A stretch of DNA of 32,000 nucleotides, taken from the NCBI RefSeq assembly GCF_000015025.1, contig NC_008578.1, forward strand, positions 1,050,001 to 1,082,000, in the 5' to 3' direction. The translations under genes were made by a program, and so were the position numbers. Under the pieces are notes generated by a model that ran no database searches, was not told the origin of the DNA, and saw nothing but the letters and a program-made list of their open reading frames with translations. Below, in pieces: positions 1,845 to 18,680 of the stretch; the first letter of the stretch is position 1; each line of letters starts with the position of its first letter. The DNA comes from Acidothermus cellulolyticus 11B (GTDB lineage Bacteria; Actinomycetota; Actinomycetes; Acidothermales; Acidothermaceae).

Positions 1845-2687
1845 GTGAGGGGTAGCGCACTGCCCGCAAGGCACGATGGCGGTACGGCGAAAACTGCCCA
1901 CCGGCGACGTTCGGTTGTTGTCCGCATTGGCCTGCTTGTCGCGCTGGTTGGGTTGACGAGCGGGTGCACGGCGAACGACCTGCCGAGGCTCGGCATGCCG
2001 ACACCGATCACCGCGCAGGCGCAACGGGTGTTGCGGCTCTGGCAAGGCGGTTGGGCGGCGGCGCTCTTTGTAGGCTGCATCGTCTGGGGGCTCATCATCT
2101 GGTGCGTTATCGCCTACCGCAAACGGGACGGCGCACAGGCTCCACAGACGACGTACAACGTGCCGATTGAGGTGCTCTACACGGTCGTCCCGGTCATCTT
2201 CGTCGCTGTTTTCTTCTACTTCACCGCCCGGGACGAGAACTACGTCACGAAGTTGTCAGCCCATCCCGACGTGACGGTCGAGGTCGTCGGCTACCAGTGG
2301 GATTGGCAGTTCAACTACTTGAGCGGGCCGCAACCCGATGCGCCGATTGTGGCTCAGGTGACCGGTGATGCTGCGCATGGACATCCGGCGACGCTTGAAC
2401 TGCCGGCCGGCGAGACGGTCCGGTTCAAGCTCGTCTCGCCGGACGTGATTCACGCCTTCTGGGTGCCGAATTTCCTGTTCAAGCGGGACGTCATTCCGGG
2501 TCGGATGAGCGAATTCGACGTCCATATCGACGCGGACAAGCAAGGCACCTACATCGGCCGGTGCACCGAGCTCTGCGGCCTCTACCACGACCAGATGATC
2601 TTCTATGTCAAGGTGGTGGATCCGGTGACATACCAGCATGACCTTGAGACGATGAAAGCGCAGTACGCCGCCGGAGGTGCGTCATGA
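1845..2687 (+). CDS. ctaC: Cytochrome c oxidase subunit II (aa3-type), lipoprotein
   Basis: CuA site HAFWVPNF...[12 protein letters not shown]. Lipobox LTSGC follows a hydrophobic N-terminus, and there are two TM segments. The stop overlaps the ctaD start (ATGA at 2684-2687). The GTG start at 1845 is uncertain. Confidence 0.93.
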
Positions 2688-4396
2688 CCACCGTGGTGGA
2701 TCGCGTCGACGTTCAAGCGCGTCGAATCCAACGGGCGCAGCGGCGCGGGTCGGTGATTGTTAACTGGTTGACGACGACGGATCATAAACTGATCGGCCAG
2801 TTGTATTTGATCACGTCGTTTGGGTTCTTCATCATCGCGGGGATCATGGCGTTGTTGATGCGGGCGGAGTTGGCCCGGCCCGGGTTGCAGTTCTTGACGC
2901 CGGAGGAGTACAACCAGCTCTTCACCATGCACGGCACGCTCATGCTGCTGTTGTTCGCGACACCGCTGTTCGTCGGTTTTGCGAATGTCGTGATGCCGTT
3001 GCAGATCGGTGCGCCGGATGTGGCGTTTCCCCGGTTGAATTTGCTGAGCTACTACCTTTTCTTGTTCGGCGGGTTGATTACGGTTGGTGGTTTTCTCACA
3101 CCGGGTGGGGCGGCGGATTTCGGTTGGTACGCCTACACGCCGTTGTCGGACGTCGCCCACTCGCCGTCACTCGGCGGCGACATGTGGATCATGGGGTTGG
3201 TTGTTTCCGGCCTGGGGACGATCCTCGGTGGCGTGAATTTCATTACCACGATTCTGGTGATGCGGGCGCCGGGGATGACGATGTTCCGCATGCCGATCTT
3301 CACGTGGAATGTGCTCTTGACGAGTCTGCTGGTGCTGCTCGCGTTCCCGGTGTTGGCGGCGGCGTTGCTGGCGTTGGAGGCGGATCGCAAACTTGGTGCG
3401 CATATTTTCGATCCGGCCAACGGCGGCCCGATTCTCTGGCAGCACCTGTTCTGGTTCTTCGGCCATCCCGAGGTGTATATCATCGCGCTGCCGTTCTTCG
3501 GAATCATCACCGAGATCCTCCCGGTGTTCAGCCGGAAACCGGTCTTCGGCTACAAGGGGTTGGTGTTCGCGACCATTTCCATCGCCGGGCTGTCGATGAG
3601 TGTGTGGGCGCACCACATGTTCTCCACCGGCGCGGTGCTGCTGCCGTTCTTCTCGCTGATGACGTTCCTCATCGGGGTGCCGACCGGGGTGAAGTTCTTC
3701 AACTGGATCGGCACGATGTGGCGCGGTCAGCTCTCCTTCGACACCCCCCTGCTTTGGGCGCTCGGCTTTCTCGTGACGTTCCTCTTCGGCGGGCTGACCG
3801 GGATCATTCTCGCGTCACCGCCGTTGGATTTCCACGTCACCGACACGTATTTCGTGGTAGCGCACTTCCATTACGTGCTCTTCGGCACCGTGGTCTTCGC
3901 CATGTTCGGCGGGTTTTACTTCTGGTGGCCAAAGATGACCGGCAAGATGCTCGACGAACGGCTCGGCAAGATGCACTTCTGGACGCTGTTCATCGGCTTT
4001 CACACCACGTTCCTCGTGCAGCACTGGCTGGGTGTGGAAGGCATGCCCCGACGGATCGCCGACTACCTGCCCACCGAGGGGTTCACCACGCTGAACACCG
4101 TCTCGACCATCGGCTCGTTCCTCCTGGCGCTGTCGATGATCCCGTTCGGTATCAACGTGTGGCGGACCTGGCGGTACGCCCCCCACGTCGGCGTCGACGA
4201 CCCGTGGGGCTGGGGCGCCTCCCTGGAATGGGCGACCTCCTGCCCACCACCCCGGCACAACTTCCGCCGCCTGCCCCGCATCCGCTCCTTCCGCCCCGCC
4301 TTCGACCTCCACCACCCGGAGCTCTCGCTGGTTCCGGAGTACCGCCAGCGGATTCCGGTCACTGGGGGAACCGTGTCGGGAGGTGAGCAGGCGTGA
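2684..4396 (+). CDS. ctaD: Cytochrome c oxidase subunit I
   Basis: Heme-copper oxidase signatures [20 protein letters not shown] and VAHFHYV. About 12 TM helices. Confidence 0.97.
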
Positions 4397-4791
4397 AGAC
4401 CGAGGGATTCCTCTTCGCCGGCTGGGCGGCTTTCTTTGCCATTGTGGACGTCGTCTACTGGTACACCTCACACGACCCAACGGGCACGACGGCGCTCGCG
4501 CTTACGGTAGGTCTGGCATTCCTGGTCGGCTTCTTCCTCTTCGTCACCGGTCGGCGAACCGGTCTTCGTCCGGAGGACCGTCCCGATGCCGAGATCTCCG
4601 AAGGTGCCGGCGAGTACGGCTTCTTCCCGGCCAACAGCTGGTGGCCGCTCTTCCTAGCTGGATCGAGCGCTATTGCCGCCCTTGGCGTGGTTTTCGCCTG
4701 GTGGCTGGTGATCGTCGGCATCATGCTGGTGCTGATCAGCGCCACGGGTTTCCTCATGGAGTATTACCGGGGCGTGCACACGCCACGGTAG
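4393..4791 (+). CDS. ctaF: Cytochrome c oxidase polypeptide 4 (actinobacterial CtaF)
   Basis: 132 aa and four hydrophobic helices. The conserved [21 protein letters not shown] block matches Rv2199c/CtaF as recalled. The GTG start overlaps the ctaD stop (GTGA). Confidence 0.88.
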
Positions 4792-4853
4792 ACGGCATCG
4801 GCTTGGTCGGTCGGCGCAGCCGCGCGCCGGCCGGTCGTTCCGCCGGCGGACCG

Positions 4854-5507
4854 CTACCGGCAACCGGAAATCGGCCGGGCAACAGGCCCGTTCTGGGATG
4901 AGCGGCGGTGCTTGGGCGTTGACATCGGGCGACGCCGCCGATCCATGACGGCCACCCAGCCGGCTCCGGCGAGCAGAGCGGTGGTCAGCGCAAGGTGGGC
5001 TACGTCGCCGCGACGCCACCGGTACTGCGGGAGCCCGACCCAGGGTACCCGGAGCCGCGGCAGGCCCAGAACATTTCCGGGCGGCACAGGGGTCGAATCC
5101 GGGTGCGCGTTGGCGTCGCCCCGGGTTATGAAGCCGCCGCCATTAGTGCGGCGAACAACTCGGTGGACGTCGACGCGGCCCGGCATGGCGGGGTCGCGGA
5201 ACACGATCGCCTGGCCCGGCCGGATCTCGGACGGCCGTACCGGCGCGTACAGGACAACATCGCCGGGTGTGAGGGCGGGCCGCATGGAGCCGGAGAGCAC
5301 CACGCTGCCGTGCCAGCCGACGAGCAGCGGAACAACAGCCCAGATCATCAAACTGAGCACGGTCGTGACCAGGCCGACAACGCTCCCGCGGAGCAGCAGC
5401 CAGCCGACCCGGATGGGCGTGCCGGCCGGCCGGGTGCCGAAGCGCCGGAGGAGTCCGGCGCCCGGCTCGCTGAGACCGGGCCGCACGATCTCGGTCTGGA
5501 CGCTCAT
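4854..5507 (-). CDS. Signal peptidase I, archaeal/ER (SipW/Sec11) type
   Basis: Catalytic Ser box SGSMRPAL, His box VDVHRVV, and ITRGDANAHPDS (the GDxNxxxD box). It has an N-terminal TM segment and a C-terminal TM anchor (LALTTALLAGAGWVAV). I chose the ATG at 5507. The ORF is open to 5918 but that extension is Arg/Pro-rich and overlaps the divergent gene. Confidence 0.85.
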   Translation of the reverse strand: MSVQTEIVRPGLSEPGAGLLRRFGTRPAGTPIRVGWLLLRGSVVGLVTTVLSLMIWAVVPLLVGWHGSVVLSGSMRPALTPGDVVLYAPVRPSEIRPGQAIVFRDPAMPGRVDVHRVVRRTNGGGFITRGDANAHPDSTPVPPGNVLGLPRLRVPWVGLPQYRWRRGDVAHLALTTALLAGAGWVAVMDRRRRPMSTPKHRRSSQNGPVARPISGCR

Positions 5508-5586
5508 CGCCGTTCCATCGACCGCCGGGCCGGGCAGATGAGCATGCCGGACCGGGCAGAGAGCGCGCCGCGCTCGGGAGCTAAGC

Positions 5587-6936
5587 ATGCCGGACCGCCC
5601 GCCCCGGGTTGGGCCGCCCGGCTGCGGCTCAGGTAACGGACGAACGCTCCGATGGGGACGTGTGAGCCTTGCGTCCGAGCCGCCGCGGTCGGTGACGCTG
5701 ATCCTGCGTGCCCGGGGTCGGTTCCGGCTGAGCCGTCCTCGACCGGCCCTTCTGATCCTCGCCGCTGGTGTCGTGCTGCTCGAGTTGATTCTCAGCGGCA
5801 CGATGGGGTCGGCGTACTCGGTCTTCTCGGCCACGACGACGAACAGCGCGAATTCTTTCTCGGCGGCGTCGGTGTTTCCGCCCAACGGCGCCTTGTACAG
5901 CGTAGGAGCAAACGCCAACGGGCAGCTCGGGCTCGGGGATACGTCGGTGCACTACAGTCCCGTGCAGGTTGGCACGTCGCAGTGGAAGCAGGTGGGCGGT
6001 GGAGCCCGGCACGCCTGCGGGGTCAGGAGCGACAACAGCCTGTGGTGCTGGGGATCGAACGCCACCGGGCAGCTCGGCATCGGCAACAACACCGACCAGT
6101 ACTCGCCTGTTCAGCCGCAGACCAACACCAACTTCTCGATGGCGGTGGGCGGCGACGATTTCAGCTGCGCGATCCGCGGCGACGGAACGCTCTGGTGTTG
6201 GGGCGGCAACGGCAATGGGCAGCTCGGAACCGGCGACACCACAAGCCGGCTCCAGCCGGTGCAGATCGGCACCGCAACGTGGACGACGGTGACCGCGGGG
6301 CTCTACCATGCCTGCGGAATCCAGACCGACGGGAGTCTCTGGTGCTGGGGGGCCAACGGCAGCGGCCAACTCGGTCTCGGGAGCAACAGTCCATCGTCGT
6401 ATCTCACGCCCACCCGGGTCGGGACAGCGACGACGTGGACCAGTGTCGCCGCCGGATATCTGAGCACCTGCGCGACGAAGAGCGACGGCACGCTGTGGTG
6501 CTGGGGAGACAACACCCACGGCCAGCTCGGGATCGGTAACACGCTGCCGCAGTACAGTCCCACGCAGGTGAGCGGCACGAGCTGGGTGACGGTCTCCGCC
6601 GGTCAGTACACCGCCTGCGCCATCCGCACCAACGGCACATTGTGGTGCTGGGGGGAGAACAGCAACGGCGAGGTGGGCATCGGCAACACCAATACGCCGC
6701 AGTTGACGCCGCAGCAGGTGACGACAGCGACGAACTGGAACACCGTCTCACTGGGGTATCAGCACACCTGCGCGACCCGCAGCGACGGGACCGGTTGGTG
6801 CTGGGGCAACAACACCAACGGACAGCTCGGTCAAGGCAATACCACCCAGCAGACCTTGCCGGTTCAATTACCGTTCGCGACCGTGCAGGCGGTCTTCTCC
6901 GGCTCGCAATCCAACAGCACGTACATCATCAAATAA
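5587..6936 (+). CDS. Secreted RCC1-repeat seven-blade beta-propeller protein with SipW-cognate (TasA/camelysin-like) signal peptide
   Basis: Seven units of about 50 aa built on the pattern LWCWGxNxxGQLGxGxxxxxxxPxQV. The N-terminus has a basic region, a hydrophobic core (PALLILAAGVVLLELIL) and then SGTMGSAYSVFSATTTNSANSFSAAS. ATG 5587 has GGGAG 6 nt upstream. GTG 5662 is an alternative start. Confidence 0.85.
   Translation: MPDRPPRVGPPGCGSGNGRTLRWGRVSLASEPPRSVTLILRARGRFRLSRPRPALLILAAGVVLLELILSGTMGSAYSVFSATTTNSANSFSAASVFPPNGALYSVGANANGQLGLGDTSVHYSPVQVGTSQWKQVGGGARHACGVRSDNSLWCWGSNATGQLGIGNNTDQYSPVQPQTNTNFSMAVGGDDFSCAIRGDGTLWCWGGNGNGQLGTGDTTSRLQPVQIGTATWTTVTAGLYHACGIQTDGSLWCWGANGSGQLGLGSNSPSSYLTPTRVGTATTWTSVAAGYLSTCATKSDGTLWCWGDNTHGQLGIGNTLPQYSPTQVSGTSWVTVSAGQYTACAIRTNGTLWCWGENSNGEVGIGNTNTPQLTPQQVTTATNWNTVSLGYQHTCATRSDGTGWCWGNNTNGQLGQGNTTQQTLPVQLPFATVQAVFSGSQSNSTYIIK
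5887..6933 (+). repeat. Seven tandem repeats of about 150 nt encoding the RCC1 blades
   Basis: A recurrent CTSTGGTGCTGGGG...GGSCAGCTCGG core occurs near 6041, 6190, 6337, 6493, 6640 and 6794, plus a first degenerate unit. Confidence 0.8.
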
Positions 6937-7064
6937 CACCGACGGCAAACCCCCGCAAGGACGGCGGTGTCAGCGGCCGCGGCAAGCGCGGCACGCCGAG
7001 TGTCACGCGGCACAGCCCATCGCCGTATGGGTAGGGGCAGACTCGCAAGCGATTTGCGTGGCGT

Positions 7065-8771
7065 CTAGTGCCCGCCCGGCTGGCCCTCCGTTCCGCCGGG
7101 CCGACCGTCGCCGGGCGTCGCCGCGTCCTGTGGCACCAGCTCGTGGCCGATTTCGCGTGCTTCCGGTAGTTCCGGCTCGTACCAGACCGTGCCCAACGCC
7201 CGGCGCACTTTCAGCAGCGGATTCCGGGTGTGCGGCGCGCGCACCCCGTGTTCGTCAACCGGCGGCGGCAACTCCGGTGCCGGGCCCTGCCGGTACTCCA
7301 ATCCCATCCGCGCGACCGCGTCGTCCGGAAGTTCCTGCTCGACTTCGATGAACTCCCCGTGCGGGAGCATGACGATCCGCCCGGTCTCGTACCCGTGGTG
7401 CGCCGTGCGCAGGTCATGCCGCTGGAGACCGAGGCAGATCCGCCGCGTCACAAAGAAAGCCAACGGGGGTACGACAAGAAACGCGATGCGGAAAATCCAC
7501 GTCGTCGTGTACAGGCTGATGTCGAAATGCACGGAGATGAGGTCGTTGGCGCCGGCGAGGAGCATGATGGCGAAGTACGAAATCATCATGACCCCGAGAG
7601 CGGTGCGGCCGGGCCGGTTCCGCGGTCGGTCGCAGATGTTGTGAATCTCGCGGTCCCCGGTGACCCACGCCTCCAAGGCCGGATACACCGCCATCGCGGT
7701 GAAGAACAAGCCCGGAATGAGCACCGCCGGAACGAAGACGTTCCAGCTGATGGTATGGCCTGCGATATTTGTCTCCGGGTTAGGCATCATGCGCAACGCG
7801 CCTTCGAGCCACCCGATGTAAAAGTCCGGCTGCGAACCCGCGGAGACCTGTGTCGGATCGTACGGCCCGTACAACCAGACCGGGTTGATTTGGAAGAAGG
7901 CGGCGAGCAGCACGGTAACGGCGAAAACCGCGAAGAAGAAGCCGCCGGTCTTCACCATGAACGCGGGGTAGAACGGCGCCCCGACGACATTGTCGTTGCT
8001 GCGGTGCTTACCCGGCCACTGCGTGTGCTTCTGATGCCACATGATCATCATGTGTGCGGAAATCAGGGCAAGCAGCAAGCCGGGGATGAGCAGGATGTGT
8101 ACCACGTAGAGGCGAGGAATGAGTTCGGTGCCGGGAAACTGCCCGCCGAAGACGAACGCAGCGACGTAGGTGCCGACGATGGGAATCGATTCGGCTACTC
8201 CGTAGGCGATGCGCAGACCGGTTCCGGAGAGGAGGTCGTCGGGGAGCGAGTAGCCGGCGAATCCTTCCAGCAACGCCAAGGTCATCAGCGTGAAGCCGAT
8301 GAGCCAGTTCGTCTCACGCGGCCGTCGGAACGCTCCGGTGAAGAAAACCCGGCACATGTGGGCGATGATGGCCGCGACAAAGAGCAGCGCCGCCCAGTGG
8401 TGAATCTGGCGGACGAGCAGGCCGCCTCGCACATCGAACGACAGATGCAGGGTCGAGTTGAATGCCTCCGTCATCTTGATGCCGCGAAGCGGCGCGTAGG
8501 AGCCGTTGTAGACGACCTCCTGCGAGCTCGGGTGGAAGAACAATGTGAGGAATGTGCCGGAGAGGAGCAGGATGACGAACGAATAGAGCGCGATCTCCCC
8601 GAGCATGAACGACCAGTGGTCCGGAAAAACCTTGTTCAACGTGCGGCGGAGGAATGTCGCCGCACCGAAGCGTTCGTCGACCTCGGCCAACGCCCTCCGG
8701 ACCTGAGCAGGCGCCCGCCGTCCGTTCACGCTGGCGTGCCCGTCGGCTGTCGGCCGGTATTCGCTGGTCAT
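7065..8771 (-). CDS. qcrB: Cytochrome bc1 complex, cytochrome b subunit
   Basis: N-terminus FLRRTLNKVFPDHWSFMLGEIALYSF with multiple TM helices and heme-ligand His residues (QIHHWAALLF, VVHILLIPG). It has the long actinobacterial C-terminal extension. The ATG overlaps the qcrA stop (ATGA). Confidence 0.96.
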   Translation of the reverse strand: MTSEYRPTADGHASVNGRRAPAQVRRALAEVDERFGAATFLRRTLNKVFPDHWSFMLGEIALYSFVILLLSGTFLTLFFHPSSQEVVYNGSYAPLRGIKMTEAFNSTLHLSFDVRGGLLVRQIHHWAALLFVAAIIAHMCRVFFTGAFRRPRETNWLIGFTLMTLALLEGFAGYSLPDDLLSGTGLRIAYGVAESIPIVGTYVAAFVFGGQFPGTELIPRLYVVHILLIPGLLLALISAHMMIMWHQKHTQWPGKHRSNDNVVGAPFYPAFMVKTGGFFFAVFAVTVLLAAFFQINPVWLYGPYDPTQVSAGSQPDFYIGWLEGALRMMPNPETNIAGHTISWNVFVPAVLIPGLFFTAMAVYPALEAWVTGDREIHNICDRPRNRPGRTALGVMMISYFAIMLLAGANDLISVHFDISLYTTTWIFRIAFLVVPPLAFFVTRRICLGLQRHDLRTAHHGYETGRIVMLPHGEFIEVEQELPDDAVARMGLEYRQGPAPELPPPVDEHGVRAPHTRNPLLKVRRALGTVWYEPELPEAREIGHELVPQDAATPGDGRPGGTEGQPGGH

Positions 8772-11565: not shown

Positions 11566-11973
11566 ATGCCGCATACGGCGCACCGTGTCGAGACCCGTAC
11601 GGTCGTGGTCTACAGCGACGACGCGACGGTGCGGGAACGGGTTCGGTTGGCCCTCGGACGGCGTCCGGCCCCGGACCTTCCCGAGCTGCGGTACATCGAG
11701 TGCGCCACCCAGTACGCCGTCCTCGAAGCGGCCGATCACGAGAACGTTGACCTGTTCATCCTCGACGGCGAGGCGGTGCCGGCCGGGGGAATGGGACTCT
11801 GCCGTCAGCTCAAGGACGAGATTTACCGGTGCCCTCCGGTCATCGTCCTGATCGCCCGCCGGGACGACGGGTGGCTTGCCACCTGGTCCCGTGCGGATGC
11901 CACCGTCTTGCATCCCGTCGACGGCGTGCGTTTGACGCCGGTCGTGGTGGATCTGCTGCGGCGGCGCAGCTGA
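11566..11973 (+). CDS. Single-domain CheY-like receiver protein (degenerate)
   Basis: Receiver-like layout: VVVYSDD (acidic pair), DLFILDG (phospho-acceptor Asp position), and [12 protein letters not shown]...TVLHPVD. ATG 11566 follows GAGGATGGAG. Alternative starts are 11482 and 11542. Confidence 0.7.
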
Positions 11974-11987
11974 ACCGGTCGGTGCCG

Positions 11988-13055
11988 ATGACTGCCGACA
12001 CGCCGAGCTGGCCGGAGGTGCTCTCCGCTCTGCTGGCGCGCCGTGATTTGACCGAAGCGGAAGCCGCCTGGGCGATGCACCAGATCATGAGCGGAGAGGC
12101 GACGGACGCCCAGATCGCCGCGTTCGCCGTGGCGTTGCGGGCCAAGGGGGAGAGTGCCGAGGAGGTATCGGGGCTGTCGTCTGTGATGCTTGCCCTCGCT
12201 GCGCCGGTGCCGCCGATCGGGGAGGCGCTGGACATCGTCGGATCGGGCGGCGACCGGGCCCACACGGTGAACATCTCCACCATGGCGGCGATCGTGGCCG
12301 CGGCCACCGGCGTTGTTGTTGCCAAACACGGCAACCGGGCGGCGTCCTCGGCCTGCGGTTCGGCCGACCTTCTCGAAGCGCTCGGCGTGGCGATCGATCT
12401 GGACGGCGCCGGGGTGGCGCGCTGCATTGAGCGAGCCGGTATTGGGTTCTGTTTCGCCCCGGTGTTTCACCCGTCGCTGCGGTACGCGGCCGTGGCCCGC
12501 CGCGAGATCGGGATTCCGACGGTCTTCAATTTCCTCGGGCCGCTCACGAATCCGGCGCGTCCGACGGCGAGCGCGGTCGGGGTGGCTGATCCGCGGATGG
12601 CCCCGGTGGTGGCCGGTGTGCTCGCACGCCGCGGCATGCGGGCGCTGGTGTTCCGCGGCGATGACGGGCTCGACGAATTGACCGTGACGACGACGTCCAC
12701 GGTCTGGGTGGTGCGCGACGGTTCCGTGCAGGAGGTCGCGTTCGACCCGCGGGCGGTGGGAATCGAGCCGGCCGACACCGCGGCGCTTCGTGGCGCAGAT
12801 GCCCGGCACAATGCGGCGGTCGCCCGCGCGGTGCTCTCCGGTGAGCGGGGGCCGATCAGGGACGCCGTCCTGCTGAACGCCGCGGCCGGGTTGACGGCGT
12901 TCGACACGCCGCGTCCGGATCAGCTGGTCGACCAGATCTCGGCGGCGATGACCCGATGCGCCGCCGCTATCGATACCGGTAAGGCGGCTCAGTTGCTCGA
13001 TGCCTGGGTGGAGGCAAGTCAGGCGGCGCGAGGCGTTGATGCGGATCGCTCGTAG
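11988..13055 (+). CDS. trpD: Anthranilate phosphoribosyltransferase
   Basis: [39 protein letters not shown] and the NPARP motif. ATG at 11988. The upstream part of the ORF (from 11829) is Arg-rich and overlaps the previous gene. Confidence 0.95.
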
Positions 13056-13531: not shown

Positions 13532-15265
13532 CTAGGCGGCTATCCGGACGTGGTTCGACGCAAGGCCGCCGTTGATGGGGATCGCCCATGTTCCCTCGAC
13601 GTCGAGCAGGCGGACGCCGGGCTGGTCGAGCCAGCGCAGGAGCAGCTCCATCTCTTCCGCGTCGGCATAGGCCGTGATCCCGACACCCCGTGGCAGGGAG
13701 GTGCTCGCGGTCGCGACGATCGCGGTGAGCTGGCGGTCAACCTCCGGCTCGCCGGCTGGTATCAGACCGGCCCCGGCGAGGCGGCCGTGGCGAATGACGG
13801 CGACGTCCCATGCGCCGTCCGGACCAGGTCGGGCGGCGACGATCTGTCGGCAACCGGCGAGTGCGGCGAGCCGCTGTGCGCGCCCGACAGCATGCAGATA
13901 GGCGACGAGCCGATCGCGGATCGGGACAGCTTCTTCGTATCGTTGCGCCGCGGCCAGCGGGGTGATGCGGCGCAGCGCGGCGGCGACAACCTCTGAGGGG
14001 TCGCTCGTCATCGCCCGGTGGACCGCGGCGACCACCGACCGGTACGCGTCCGGCGATTGCGCACCGGTGCACGGCGCGCCGCACCGGCCGAGTTCGAACC
14101 ATGCACAGGGCGGTCGGCGGGTTCGGGGTCCGAGCCGGTCGGGGCATCGGCGGATGGGGAAGGCGTCCTGCAGCGCCTCCACCGCCAGGAGCGCGCTCTC
14201 CCGGACATTGAACGGTCCGAGGTAGGTGGCTGCGTCGTTGCGAACCGTATGGACGACGGCAAGCCGTGGGAAGCGTTCATCGGTGAGCTTCACCCACCAG
14301 GTCCGCTCCGGGAATTTCGATCGCCGGTTGTACGCAGGCTTGTGTTCGGCGATGAGCCGCACTTCGCGAATTTCTGCTTCGAGCTCGGTGGCGCAGACGA
14401 TGGGTGTGACGTCCTCGGCGACGCGGAGCATGTCGACGATCCGCCCGCGGGTCTCCGCTGCCGTGAAATAGCTGCGCACCCGCTGTCGAAGGTCCTTGGC
14501 TTTTCCGACATACAGCACCCGGCCCTGACGGTCCCGGAACAGGTAGACGCCGGGCGCGTGCGGCAGCCGCTCGGCGAGGTGGCGTTTCTGGCGTTGCGTC
14601 GCGGTGACCTTGGCGCTGAAGGTTCGCACGTCGGCCAGGGACCCGACGCCGAAGGAGCCCAATCGTTCGAGCAGGCCGTGCAGGACGTCGATGGTCGCGT
14701 ATACGTCGGCGAGCGCCCGGTGATTCGGCGTGGTTTTCGCCCTGAACACCCGCGCCAGCGTGGCGAGGGTGCAATTCGGCGCTTCCTCCCGGGTGAGGAC
14801 TCTGCGGGCCAGTCGTGCCGTGTCGAGGACCTCGAACTCCGGCCAGTCATAACCGGCGGCGGCACAGGCGGCGCGGAGGAAACCGACGTCAAACGGCGCG
14901 TTATGGGCAACCAGAACGCTGCCGGTCGCGAATTCCAGGAATGTCGGCAGGACGGCGTCAATCGGTGGTGCGGGGGCGACCATCGCGTCGGTGATGCCGG
15001 TGAGCACGGTGATGAACGGCGGAATCGGCCGGCCCGGGTTGACCAGCGTCTGTAACTCACCGAGCACCTCACCGCCGCGGACCTTCACGGCGGCGAGCTC
15101 CGTGATGGCTCCGGTTCCGGGCGCACCACCTGTCGTCTCCAGGTCGACGACGACGAACGTGACGTCCCGCAGCGGTGTGTCGAGATCGTCGATCGTGGTT
15201 TGCCGGAACCCCGGCCCAGGACCGCTCGTCACGGCGCGTGATCGCTGTCCGTCGCGCGTTCGCAC
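13532..15265 (-). CDS. Fusion protein: DnaQ-like DEDD 3'-5' exonuclease plus UvrC-like GIY-YIG nuclease domain (Rv2191-like)
   Basis: Exo motifs FVVVDLETTG, AHNAPFDVGFL and HRALADV, followed by GIY-YIG (GVYLFRDRQGRVLYVGKAKDLRQRVRSY). GTG start at 15265. Confidence 0.9.
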   Translation of the reverse strand: MRTRDGQRSRAVTSGPGPGFRQTTIDDLDTPLRDVTFVVVDLETTGGAPGTGAITELAAVKVRGGEVLGELQTLVNPGRPIPPFITVLTGITDAMVAPAPPIDAVLPTFLEFATGSVLVAHNAPFDVGFLRAACAAAGYDWPEFEVLDTARLARRVLTREEAPNCTLATLARVFRAKTTPNHRALADVYATIDVLHGLLERLGSFGVGSLADVRTFSAKVTATQRQKRHLAERLPHAPGVYLFRDRQGRVLYVGKAKDLRQRVRSYFTAAETRGRIVDMLRVAEDVTPIVCATELEAEIREVRLIAEHKPAYNRRSKFPERTWWVKLTDERFPRLAVVHTVRNDAATYLGPFNVRESALLAVEALQDAFPIRRCPDRLGPRTRRPPCAWFELGRCGAPCTGAQSPDAYRSVVAAVHRAMTSDPSEVVAAALRRITPLAAAQRYEEAVPIRDRLVAYLHAVGRAQRLAALAGCRQIVAARPGPDGAWDVAVIRHGRLAGAGLIPAGEPEVDRQLTAIVATASTSLPRGVGITAYADAEEMELLLRWLDQPGVRLLDVEGTWAIPINGGLASNHVRIAA

Positions 15266-15839: not shown

Positions 15840-18632
15840 TTATCCGACGGCGCACGAACTGCCATTGAGGCTGAACGCGGTCGGCACCGGATCGCTGCCG
15901 GAGTACGCGAGGTTAAAGCCGAAACTGACCGAACCGCTCGGGCCAATGGTGCCGTTCCACGCACTGGCGGGATTGCTTGCCGTGACGGTCGTTCCGCTCT
16001 GATTGACCGTTGCGTTCCACGCCCCGTTGACGCGTTGCGACGAATTCGGGAACGACCAGACGAGGCTCCAGCCAGAAATCGCGGAGGTGCCGCCGTTCGT
16101 AATCGTGACGTTGATGGTGGCGCCGTTCTGCCACTCACTTTGTTTCACGTAGCGTACGGTGCACCGCAACGCGCCGCTTGACGGTGTCGGGGTTGGTGTC
16201 GCGGTACGCGTTGGGGTAGGCGTTGGCGTCGGGCTCGAGCTCGGTGATGGCGTCGGCGTCCGAGTCGGCGTCGGACTCGGCGTCGGAGTCGGGCTCGGCG
16301 TTGGTGTCGGGCTCGGTGATGGTGTCGGCGTCGGCGTCGGCGTACTGGACGGCGCGGGGCTCGGCGACGAGCCGGAGCCGCACGCCTCGTCGGCGTCCAG
16401 CGGCGGTTCCTGTCCGAAGACCCGGGTCCCGTTCTGGTACACCGGGATGTACGGATCCGGAGTCGCGGCGTACGTTCCCGCCGCAAGACCGGTCAGGCTG
16501 TAGGACGTCGACGAATCCCAGTAGTAGGTCCAATTCGGGCCGATCGCTGCGTTGATGCCGAATTGGAATGCCCGCGAGGGCGGCAAACCGATGGGATGTC
16601 CCGACCAGTCGATTGTCACGTAGTAGACGCAACTGGACGCGTCGCCCCACCGGACTGGTGCACTGACTTTCGCCGGTGTTCCGTCGATTTGCGCGGCCGC
16701 GTCGTAGTACACCGGTGTCGATATGTCAGCAATCGTTTGACCGTGCTGCCAGAGGGATCGGATGTCGAAGTACACCCGTGCGCTCAGGCCGCTCTCGAAG
16801 TGCGGTGGGTGGGTCGCGGTATTCGTGATAGTCACCGTCAATTGGGTTCCCTGGTTGGAATTCTGATTGAGCGTCGCGGTGGCGTAGTACGGATTCTCCG
16901 CTGGCTCGGGAACCGGGGTGAAGGCGGTCATTTGCTGGTTCTGGCCGTAGTACGTGTACAGTCCGGCCAATGCGCCGACGAATGCCGCGTTGTAGTCCAC
17001 GGCCACCTCGTTGAGGACGTAATCGGTCGTCACGTCGTCGGGATGATCCTGGGCATCTGGGCCGCCGACGAGCGCCCCCCAGAGAATGTGCCGGTCGTTG
17101 GGCGGGTCGTTCTGACTGTTGGTGAGCGAGCCGTGCGCGTCGGCGTGGTGCGGGTGCGACGCGGCGGTCGCGGATCCGCCGACGAGCGAGCCGACGCCCG
17201 GGGTCGTCGAACCGAAACCAACGATGTACGAGAACTTCGCCGGATTGTCACCCATGAGGTAGTTCATTTGCCCCATGGCCCAGTCGCTGAATGCGGTCGA
17301 CTGGGGGTCGTTCGGAAAATTCTGCCGGTACGCCAGGGCTTCCAGTTGCGCGGCCGTGTTGTACCGAGCGGATCCCCAGGTGGTGAGGAAAGCGAATCCG
17401 GCGGGAGTCGTGGCGATGAAGTTCGTGTCGGAGGCATTGTCGTGCGGGACATGCGACCAGTACTGCACCTGCCACTTGTTGAAGTAGTGGATCTGGTCGC
17501 GCACGGCTTGCGGGATCGTCGTGTCGCCGTTCACGATCGGATCGAGGACGCTGAACACCCCACCCCATTTGGTGTCCCACGACATCACCCAGATGTTCTG
17601 CCATGTGTTAGTGGTATCGGCGACGATGCGCTTCATCCATCCGGTGTAGTGCCCGGCGGCGTCCGTGCCGAGAATGTCGGTGAGATAGGAACGCTGGCCG
17701 GTCGCCAGATACAGCCAGACCGCCGCCCACGCCAGTTCGTCTTCGTCGTAGCTGGAGTTGTAGAACCCGCCGGAGTAGCCGAGACCGCGGTACTGAACGG
17801 CGAACGCGTACAGCGCCTGTGCGGTGTCGAGCAGTTTGGCCGAATAGGCGGGGTCGCTGGATGCGACGAGCAGCGAGTGGACGGCGAGGGCTGCCGCGGC
17901 GCCGGCTGCTTGGTCACTCGCCGGTGTTTCCGCTGTGGCAAAGTACGCCGGCCGGGGATACAGCGTGGCGCTCTGCAGCTCTGAGGGACCCCAGTAATTG
18001 TGGTCGACGGAACCCTCGCCGACCTGGTACGCGAACGCGACAACCTTGCCGGAGGAATCGCGGAACGTCGACCGCAGGAAGTAGTCGCTGAACCACTTCA
18101 ATTCGTCCAGCCCGTGCGCCCAGGTGCCAGTGGCACGGAATGCCTGCGGAAATTCGTACATTCCCCAACCGAGGGTGGAGGCGGCGTACGACTGCGGAAG
18201 ACCGAATTTCACGTGGTCGCCGGCGTCGTGGAATCCGCCGGAGAGGTCGACACAGCCGTTGCCGTCAGGGTCGAGAATCGCGCGGTTTGCTGCGATGAAG
18301 GTGGCCGACAGGTTTGTGCCGACGTTCTTCGACATGGGCTGCAACGGGACGCACGAATCCGACGGCTCGGAGTCGCCGCGCCATTCCAGCGGCTGGTCAC
18401 CGAGGCTGCGGGCCGGACCTGATTTTTGCGCGTCGTAAAAATACAGCGATTCCTGTAAGGCAAGCGGGAGGGAGTAATGGGCCGTGACCCCGGCGCTCGC
18501 CGCCGAGCCGAGACCACTTACCACGAGAGCGGCGGACCCGACCGCCGCGGCGCTCGCTGCCGCGCTGAATCTCAGCAATCGCCGGCGCAGCACCTGCTGC
18601 CGCCAGACCCGGCGCACCCTGGGCTTGACCAT
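15840..18632 (-). CDS. Secreted GH9 endoglucanase: GH9 catalytic domain, CBM3c, Pro/Thr linker, CBM2
   Basis: GH9 signatures [19 protein letters not shown] and [19 protein letters not shown]3c-like module follows ([23 protein letters not shown]...), then a 64-aa PT/PS linker and a C-terminal CBM2 ([23 protein letters not shown]...[10 protein letters not shown]). The N-terminus [17 protein letters not shown] looks like a twin-arginine-type signal. Start is ATG 18632 or GTG 18653. Confidence 0.93.
16176..16367 (-). repeat. Low-complexity (ACN-CCN)n region encoding the Pro/Thr/Ser interdomain linker
   Basis: The translation is [64 protein letters not shown]. Confidence 0.9.
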
Positions 18633-18680
18633 GCCAGACCGTCCGTTCTCCACGCGTGTATGAAATGAGCCGAGGTGTTT

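Follow-up and report, generated by a model that had tools for sequence, protein, structure and literature searches.

The 32-kb stretch of the Acidothermus cellulolyticus 11B chromosome analyzed here (the window) carries, between ctaF and qcrB, a divergent pair of genes: on the minus strand a signal peptidase of the endoplasmic reticulum (ER)/archaeal kind, and on the plus strand the precursor of an RCC1-like propeller whose N terminus resembles that of the fiber subunit TasA. We propose that the pair is a reduced derivative of a TasA-type fiber module found in other Actinomycetota, a reading that we hold to be probable but by no means secure. A first-pass annotation of this DNA had noted both open reading frames (ORFs), the Ser and His boxes of the peptidase, the spacing of 80 or 155 nucleotides (nt), the N-terminal string of the propeller protein, and the ctaF and qcrB flanks, and all of these are as it described them (Table 1). 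The product of the plus-strand gene matches ABK52733.1 of the 2,443,540-bp A. cellulolyticus 11B chromosome at 100% identity.

Table 1. Coordinates of the peptidase/RCC1 pair, its parts, and its flanking genes in the window
Feature	Position	Strand	Basis or remark
Signal peptidase gene, 217 amino acids (aa)	4854..5507	-	TIGR02228; ER/archaeal-type, SipW-like, S26B signal peptidase I
SGSM box with catalytic Ser74	5283..5294	-	Columns S72-G73-S74-M75 invariant in alignments A1 and A2
Divergent intergenic region, 79 nt, from peptidase start to first RCC1 start candidate	5508..5586	.	Sequence reading
RCC1 propeller precursor, 449 aa from ATG5587	5587..6936	+	ORF and Pfam
Signal peptide: basic n-region RARGRFRLSRPRP, hydrophobic core ALLILAAGVVLLELIL, c-region SGTMGSAYS	5707..5820	+	
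TasA-type N-terminal motif VFSATTTNSANSFSAASVF, putative donor strand, then Pro-Pro linker	5821..5877	+	Profiles
Seven-blade RCC1-like beta-propeller	5887..6933	+	Pfam, AlphaFold2, Foldseek
ctaF, cytochrome c oxidase subunit IV (Cyt_c_ox_IV), last of ctaC-D-F	4393..4791	+	PF12270, 172 bits; flank, outside module
qcrB, cytochrome b, last gene of qcr operon	7065..8771	-	PF13631 and PF00033; flank, outside module

The signal peptidase and the propeller protein

The translation of the minus-strand gene begins MSVQTEIV and contains the boxes SGSMRP, HRV, and GDANAHPD, with N- and C-terminal hydrophobic segments on either side of the catalytic domain. It passes the NCBIfam model TIGR02228 (sigpep_I_arch) with 77.3 bits against a cutoff of 51.85, and the peptidase of the related locus L001 scores 74.3 bits on the same model. 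Ser74 (SGSM), His115 (HRV), and both Asp131 and Asp137 (GDANxxxD) are invariant in an alignment of the window enzyme with 29 homologues (n = 30). Judged by sequence, the Ser/His arrangement, with His where P-type enzymes have Lys, is that of an ER/archaeal-type enzyme, as the first-pass annotation had held. On NF046067, the equivalog model for Bacillus SipW, the protein reaches 36.1 bits, below the cutoff of 190; by this measure, the peptidase is SipW-like but is not a SipW orthologue. The family is large (11,802 representatives at E<=0.001), and the public annotation of the window gene reads “peptidase S26B” or “signal peptidase I.”

The family also includes some unusual gene calls. Among 150 peptidase representatives, 47 are longer than 300 aa. 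A single call unites the motif described below and a passenger with a peptidase domain and a transmembrane segment in P0359, P0267, P0240, P0314, and some stop-to-stop ORFs (L031 7872-9644, for example); these are either true fusions or missed stops or starts in high-GC DNA. On a low-GC metagenome contig (L108), a degenerate S26-like gene (1857-2489, plus strand) has NAMSP instead of SGSMxP and immediately precedes a gene for an RCC1 protein (2461-3480, plus strand).

The plus-strand gene has three start candidates, namely, ATG5587, GTG5662 (the RefSeq start, giving 424 aa), and GTG5692. The sequence GGGAG lies 6 nt upstream of ATG5587, which is 80 nt from the peptidase start, while GTG5662 is 155 nt from it. 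The product of 5587-6936 matches PF00415 (RCC1) seven times and WD40_RLD (PF25390) with 242.8 bits. In an AlphaFold2 model of the 414-aa form, residues 66 to 414 form seven four-stranded blades with a predicted local distance difference test score (pLDDT) of >90, and the first 63 residues, which include the motif region, have a pLDDT of <50. A Foldseek search with this model returned UVR8, the RCC1-like domain of RPGR (RPGR-RLD), and RCC1 at E values of ~1e-29 to 1e-32 and template-modeling scores of ~0.75 to 0.85, so the earlier assignment of a seven-blade RCC1 propeller holds; BLIP-II was absent from the top 50 fold matches. The same search matched an RCC1-like subunit of Tetrahymena mitochondrial complex IV (7w5z_BP and 8gym_BP), which we note as a curiosity, with no evidence of a link. 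The GenBank label “BNR repeat domain protein” is a misnomer, and RefSeq names the product “RCC1 domain-containing protein.”

The closest RCC1 homologues, P0003 (74% identity) and P0010 (69% identity), have the same N-terminal motif and a C-terminal F5/8 type C (discoidin) domain, which the Acidothermus protein lacks. A second, distant RCC1 protein with a motif of this kind (AVFSATTANSSSFTAAANF, 15.7 bits) is P0024, a 724-aa protein of Actinoplanes spp.

The N-terminal motif

The string GTMGSAYSVFSATTTNSANSFSAAS at 5797-5871 is the sole such motif in the 32-kb window. To place it, we used profiles built from TasA-like proteins of Actinomycetota. A 39-position profile made from the N termini of 103 such proteins, with RCC1 sequences excluded, was run against 7232 six-frame ORFs; the window RCC1 protein scored 23.1 bits (E=1.8e-5) and was the sole match within the window, and the relatives' RCC1 protein scored 17.6 bits. 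A motif-only profile of 19 positions, from which the hydrophobic core was left out, gave the RCC1 protein 17.7 bits, compared with 8.1 bits for the best of 7232 reversed-sequence decoys and 1.5 bits for the next window ORF. When the full TasA-like profile was used, only its positions 15-56 aligned, and they did so to the RCC1 ORF alone in the window.

The segment of TasA from residue 28 is AFNDIKSKDATFASG, that of the TasA-like protein at L001 is AFTSTTSNGANSFAAG, and that of the Acidothermus RCC1 protein is VFSATTTNSANSFSAA. The RCC1 and L001 TasA-like segments are identical at 11 of 21 residues, and the F, T, N, and F positions are common to the RCC1 and TasA-like motifs. At the level of sequence, the RCC1 motif is shown to be homologous to the N terminus of TasA-like subunits that adjoin this peptidase family in other Actinomycetota. 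Based on alignment with TasA (A27/A28) and with the TasA-like family, the cut is predicted to fall after S78, that is, after SAYS and before VF, with small residues at -3 and -1 (A-Y-S). In the hydrophobic core of the signal peptide, a Leu-Glu pair (window 5746-5751; alignment A3) is invariant in three RCC1 proteins, and TasA-like subunits have GLIGSG there. A protein search with a 63-column N-terminal alignment yielded no more than 7 candidates, the protein of the query not being among them, so it gives no measure of how widely the combination of motif and RCC1 domain is spread.

What is such a motif for? In TasA, whose mature form starts at residue 28 (PMC10151520), the residues right behind the SipW cut (28-38) act as a donor strand to complete the next subunit, and the N terminus of TapA is similar (PMC9674648). 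TIGR04088, the curated “signal” model, covers TasA residues 11-44 and therefore spans both the signal and the donor strand. By analogy, the motif of the RCC1 protein is probably more than a signal, given that the same residues of TasA are the fiber donor strand. The RCC1 protein has nothing like the jelly-roll body with an acceptor groove that defines the TasA/camelysin family (PF12389), and the N-terminal motif is all that it has in common with that family.

The scores on TIGR04088 also place the actinobacterial proteins relative to the known families. P0224 (22.3 bits) is over the cutoff of 19, as is L046 (23.5 bits), and P0222 scores 18.1 bits; on sequence grounds, P0224 and P0222, members of the actinobacterial TasA-like family, form a bridge to the curated model. 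The actinobacterial TasA-like branch as such lies outside the curated SipW-substrate families, and the curated SipW-signal models miss it.

Related loci and the surroundings of the pair

The nearest relatives of the RCC1 protein, at L001, L003, and L085, are encoded beside the same peptidase family, in agreement with the expectation that such propellers would be peptidase linked in other genomes. At L001/L005 (metagenome-assembled genome [MAG] GCA_040255675) and at L003, the gene for the RCC1-discoidin protein is divergent from a gene for a TasA-like protein of ~225 aa, which is followed by the peptidase gene. The match of this 225-aa protein to Pfam Peptidase_M73 (camelysin/TasA) is subthreshold. 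We found 104 homologues of it, several of them with PF12389. Its AlphaFold model (mean pLDDT, 82) has the TasA fiber 8AUR as its sole strong PDB match (E=1.3e-7, probability 1.0); the archaeal bundling pilin AbpA (7UEG) ranks third, and type 1 pilus subunits are among the weak matches. No NCBIfam model matched most of the actinobacterial TasA-like subunits tested (P0121, L010, L015, and L024).

A scan for the peptidase with a 7-sequence alignment across 185,579 species genomes yielded 80 loci, Acidothermus itself not being among them, and profile scans were run on 85 sequences, namely, 84 fetched loci and the window. A TasA-like gene is present in 37 of these 85 sequences, usually directly upstream of the peptidase gene. 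The core of the relatives' loci comprises the TasA-like subunit, the peptidase, a GGDEF gene, and a membrane-anchored TasA-like protein of ~370 aa. This last protein has a TasA-like body (97.8 bits) and lacks the N-terminal motif; beyond the body come a linker rich in Pro, Thr, and Ser, a transmembrane segment at the C terminus, and a tail with the conserved sequence RIDxRDPKLAxAP. Such acceptor-only TasA-like proteins (L001 248-1366, L003 1-1077, and L011 11380-12318 on the plus strand; L111 3602-4918, L008 5898-6998, and L006 5579-7330 on the minus strand) adjoin SipW-type peptidase and TasA-like genes, and they fall outside the families of both Pfam and NCBIfam. We regard them as candidate membrane anchors, or terminators, of a fiber.

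The motif is also found on other passengers. In large proteins encoded beside the peptidase (L010 5455-7602, L011 8228-10621, L014 7695-9596, L022 1971-4685, L026 4065-6422, L037 4548-7031, and L082 5345-7159), it precedes FG-GAP propeller, Laminin_G_3, immunoglobulin (Ig)-like, or fn3 domains, and AAxxF or Pro-Pro often comes after it, as in the RCC1 proteins. We regard these proteins as a putative, varied set of donor-only cargo. A metagenome scan for the junction of motif and RCC1 domain returned only the second Acidothermus strain (L085); the remaining matches cover the RCC1 part only.

Within Acidothermus, the pair appears to be under upkeep. In L085, synteny is identical (ctaF, peptidase, RCC1, qcrB), and dN/dS between the window and L085 is 0.27 for the RCC1 gene and 0.48 for the peptidase gene. 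The 10 natural RCC1 variants are all of full length, and residues 27-120, which hold the signal, the motif, and the first blade, are free of substitutions. Substitutions in the peptidase lie mostly in the C-terminal tail (residues 188-216), past the C-terminal membrane segment, and the invariant catalytic residues are unchanged. The pair is maintained, and therefore the propeller probably still needs its peptidase. Between the window and L085, the nucleotide difference is 2.3-4.7% in the pair and 0.2% in qcrB; that is, the pair has diverged faster than its flanks.

The flanks themselves are two operons that converge, with ctaC-ctaD-ctaF on the plus strand on one side and qcrB-qcrA-qcrC on the minus strand on the other, and therefore the pair occupies the gap between them. 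The GC fraction at ~4.8-7.0 kb (0.66-0.70) is that of the rest of the window, where composition gave no signal of foreign DNA around these positions. A promoter and terminator scan of 4600-7300 yielded nothing useful, with no sigma-70-like site in 5508..5586. No TasA-like gene or discoidin remnant was matched by profiles in the window, and the intergenic regions, at 79 nt and 128 nt, are too short for TasA-like remnants. Elsewhere, the window encodes trpD (11829-13055, plus strand), an RNase_T/GIY-YIG protein (13532-15265, minus strand), and, at 15840-18653 on the minus strand, a glycoside hydrolase family 9 (GH9) cellulase with a C-terminal CBM2, as expected in a cellulolytic thermophile.

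Interpretation of the pair

In total, a dedicated peptidase lies beside an RCC1 protein with a TasA-like linking strand, and the pair is therefore most likely the remnant of a fiber system. The proposed mechanism is as follows. The minus-strand gene supplies a Ser/His (ER/archaeal, SipW-like) signal peptidase, and the plus-strand product presents, in order, a basic region, a hydrophobic core, the 19-residue motif, a Pro-Pro linker, and the seven-blade propeller. The precursor would be exported by Sec and cut by the neighboring peptidase around the SAYS-VF junction, which would leave the motif as a flexible 19-residue N-terminal arm on the mature propeller. Based on TasA and TapA, we posit that this arm is a donor strand, which in the closest relatives would slot into the groove left open in the neighboring TasA-like subunit. 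The RCC1-discoidin protein of these relatives would thus be a donor-only initiator or tip, like TapA, AbpB, or FimH, and the armless TasA-like protein with its C-terminal membrane anchor would close the fiber at the cell end. The simplest model for the relatives, which we infer by analogy, has the RCC1-discoidin protein as a donor-only tip, the TasA-like subunit as the rod, and the membrane-anchored, acceptor-only protein as the base. In Acidothermus, the window has lost its TasA-like gene, anchor, and discoidin domain, as presumably has the genome as a whole, while the peptidase and the propeller were kept. The propeller would then be an orphan, secreted or at the surface, with a continuing dependence on the peptidase, or it may dock to an acceptor encoded elsewhere.

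In tapA-sipW-tasA of Bacillus subtilis, as in our pair, a dedicated ER-type signal peptidase is encoded beside its substrates. The N-terminal motif of those substrates straddles the cut, with the donor strand as its mature part, and TapA has a non-TasA fold and is a strand donor only (PMC9674648, PMC10151520). TapA initiates filaments by donating its N terminus; with an Ig fold that is already complete, it is barred from the fiber interior (PMC10151520). Unlike the B. subtilis operon, the Acidothermus locus has a peptidase below the SipW equivalog cutoff, a cargo that TIGR04088 misses, and no TasA-like gene; and whereas TapA carries an Ig-like domain, the donor-only protein of Acidothermus would carry a seven-blade RCC1 propeller. 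The archaeal pili of Pyrobaculum calidifontis likewise combine a TasA-homologous donor-strand fiber (AbpA) with a second protein, AbpB, which is proposed as an assembly initiator that presents distal adhesin-like domains (PMC9245690). Their operon has no dedicated peptidase, and the AbpB domains are beta-sandwiches, with no propeller. The traits of a TapA/AbpB-type initiator are thus seen in the RCC1 protein insofar as a donor-like arm, disordered in the model, sits on a complete propeller fold; a major TasA-like subunit alongside is present in L001 and L003 but is missing from the window. By analogy with these systems, a TapA-like, donor-only tip or initiator subunit is the best reading of the RCC1 protein. 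The FimH/FimA tips of chaperone-usher pili offer a more distant parallel, in which a ligand-binding tip is joined to the rod by strand complementation and a terminator sits at the base. The proteins and machinery are unrelated, there is no usher or chaperone, and the Acidothermus cell is monoderm. The uncharacterized actinobacterial loci with SipW-type peptidases and TasA-like genes share both the peptidase family and the motif with our pair, PF12389 having been reported in Actinobacteriota. L001 and L003 hold the RCC1 gene, the TasA-like gene, the peptidase, and the anchor together, whereas at the Acidothermus locus the TasA-like subunit is missing, neither the anchor nor the GGDEF gene is present, and the RCC1 protein has no C-terminal F5/8 type C domain.

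Several observations weigh against a fiber origin. TIGR04088, TIGR04089, and TIGR04090 gave no match at E<=10 to the whole RCC1 protein or to N-terminal fragments of it; the thresholds are at least 19 bits for TIGR04088 and more than 60 bits for TIGR04089, and B. subtilis TasA, run against the same library as a positive control, scored 38-42 bits on TIGR04088. The first-pass annotation had called the N terminus TasA/camelysin style and had staked that claim on SipW-cognate signal models. With the silence of TIGR04088 and TIGR04089, that part of the claim falls, and what stands of it is the likeness found with the family-specific profile and the TasA-like neighbors in relatives. Profile scans of the window found neither a TasA-like body nor an anchor, and the 104 TasA-like homologues include none from the Acidothermus chromosome (2,443,540 bp), elsewhere on which a divergent copy is possible; the Acidothermus donor strand has no known acceptor. 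RCC1 is, moreover, a rare cargo, encoded beside the peptidase in 1 of 80 genomic SipW loci (L001 again), and the closely related TasA-like/peptidase loci L111 and L113 to L115 are without it, which makes the propeller an accessory to a conserved core. Finally, the dN/dS values that speak for maintenance of the pair rest on only 31 nucleotide differences per gene.

How else might the pair be explained? The first-pass annotation took it for a self-contained two-gene export module, and a version of that idea deserves to be weighed: the motif would be only a determinant of recognition and cleavage, and the mature RCC1 protein would be free and secreted, with a ligand of its own and no role in a fiber. 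Acidothermus does have only these two genes, both of them conserved, and no TasA-like acceptor was found in the window scans or in the collection of 104 homologues. Secreted RCC1-like propellers exist in actinomycetes, BLIP-II, with its seven blades, being an example, although to our knowledge BLIP-II has an ordinary signal peptide and neither a linked S26B peptidase nor a TasA-type arm. Yet alignment with TasA puts the motif on the mature side of the cut, where the residues of TasA are structural (PMC9674648), the RCC1 gene of the nearest relatives adjoins a TasA-like subunit with the same motif, and the combination of motif and passenger recurs with adhesin-like domains next to TasA-like genes. 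We consider a free two-gene module possible but doubtful, and as the primary unit it gives way to the larger module of the relatives, of which the Acidothermus version is a reduced form. Less likely still is that the signal is never cut and tethers the propeller as a type II membrane protein while the peptidase acts on other substrates. The long n-region, the 16-residue hydrophobic core with its conserved Glu, and the absence of a match to curated signal models would fit such an anchor, but the small residues A-Y-S stand right before the motif, at a position homologous to the TasA cut (PMC10151520), and the linkage to the peptidase has been kept in three lineages.

The remaining two explanations concern the neighborhood, and both seem to us very improbable. 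Adjacency might be coincidental, with the RCC1 protein processed by a housekeeping LepB-type peptidase and the S26B gene unrelated to it, for RCC1 proteins with an ordinary signal peptide or lipobox and without such a neighbor number in the thousands among bacteria. The divergent pairing, however, is kept in Acidothermus strains, in MAGs, and with the homologues of 74% and 69% identity, and the motif is common to the usual substrates of this peptidase family. Least credible of all is a service to the respiratory supercomplex, for example, as an extracytoplasmic accessory of cytochrome aa3/bc1. The location between ctaF and qcrB, which had been thought unusual, invites this idea, as does, for what a curiosity is worth, the Tetrahymena complex IV match. 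Against it, the pair sits in the gap of convergent operons, it has diverged by the 2.3-4.7% given above while qcrB has diverged by 0.2%, and the module of the relatives adjoins GGDEF, esterase, or glycoside hydrolase genes, with cta and qcr not being neighbors there. The position is not conserved in relatives and carries no functional weight, and placement beside respiratory genes looks incidental. Mycobacteria likewise have unrelated genes between ctaF and qcrB.

We thus return to the reduced fiber module and to what it would mean. Both genes were already annotated publicly; what is new is a variant of the TasA/TapA/SipW kind. The literature searched holds no paper that joins SipW-type peptidases, or SipW by name, with RCC1 cargo, in line with the earlier remark that such a cargo was uncharacterized, and none that describes the actinobacterial module. 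A search on Acidothermus and RCC1 found nothing, and no relevant work emerged on the Acidothermus secretome or its BNR repeats. Because the Acidothermus pair is a reduced version, its direct biological payoff in that organism is modest. The interest lies in the family, as TasA/TapA/SipW is the model for Gram-positive biofilm fibers. We speculate, and only tentatively, that many Actinomycetota may build a four-part surface fiber that is independent of sortase and has so far gone undescribed. Its parts would be an S26B-processed TasA-like rod, interchangeable donor-only tips (RCC1-discoidin, FG-GAP propeller, LamG, or Ig-like), and an acceptor-only TasA-like base on a Pro/Thr-rich stalk with a C-terminal membrane anchor, often with an adjacent GGDEF gene; the Acidothermus RCC1 protein would be such a tip, orphaned or with its acceptor elsewhere. 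The findings hint that what is called a “SipW-type signal” may in truth be a portable donor strand, one that unrelated binding domains can carry, RCC1 here and FG-GAP and LamG elsewhere, and the relatives suggest a matching membrane-anchored acceptor in Actinomycetota. Together, these features offer a modular model of tip, rod, and base for an uncharacterized class of fibers.

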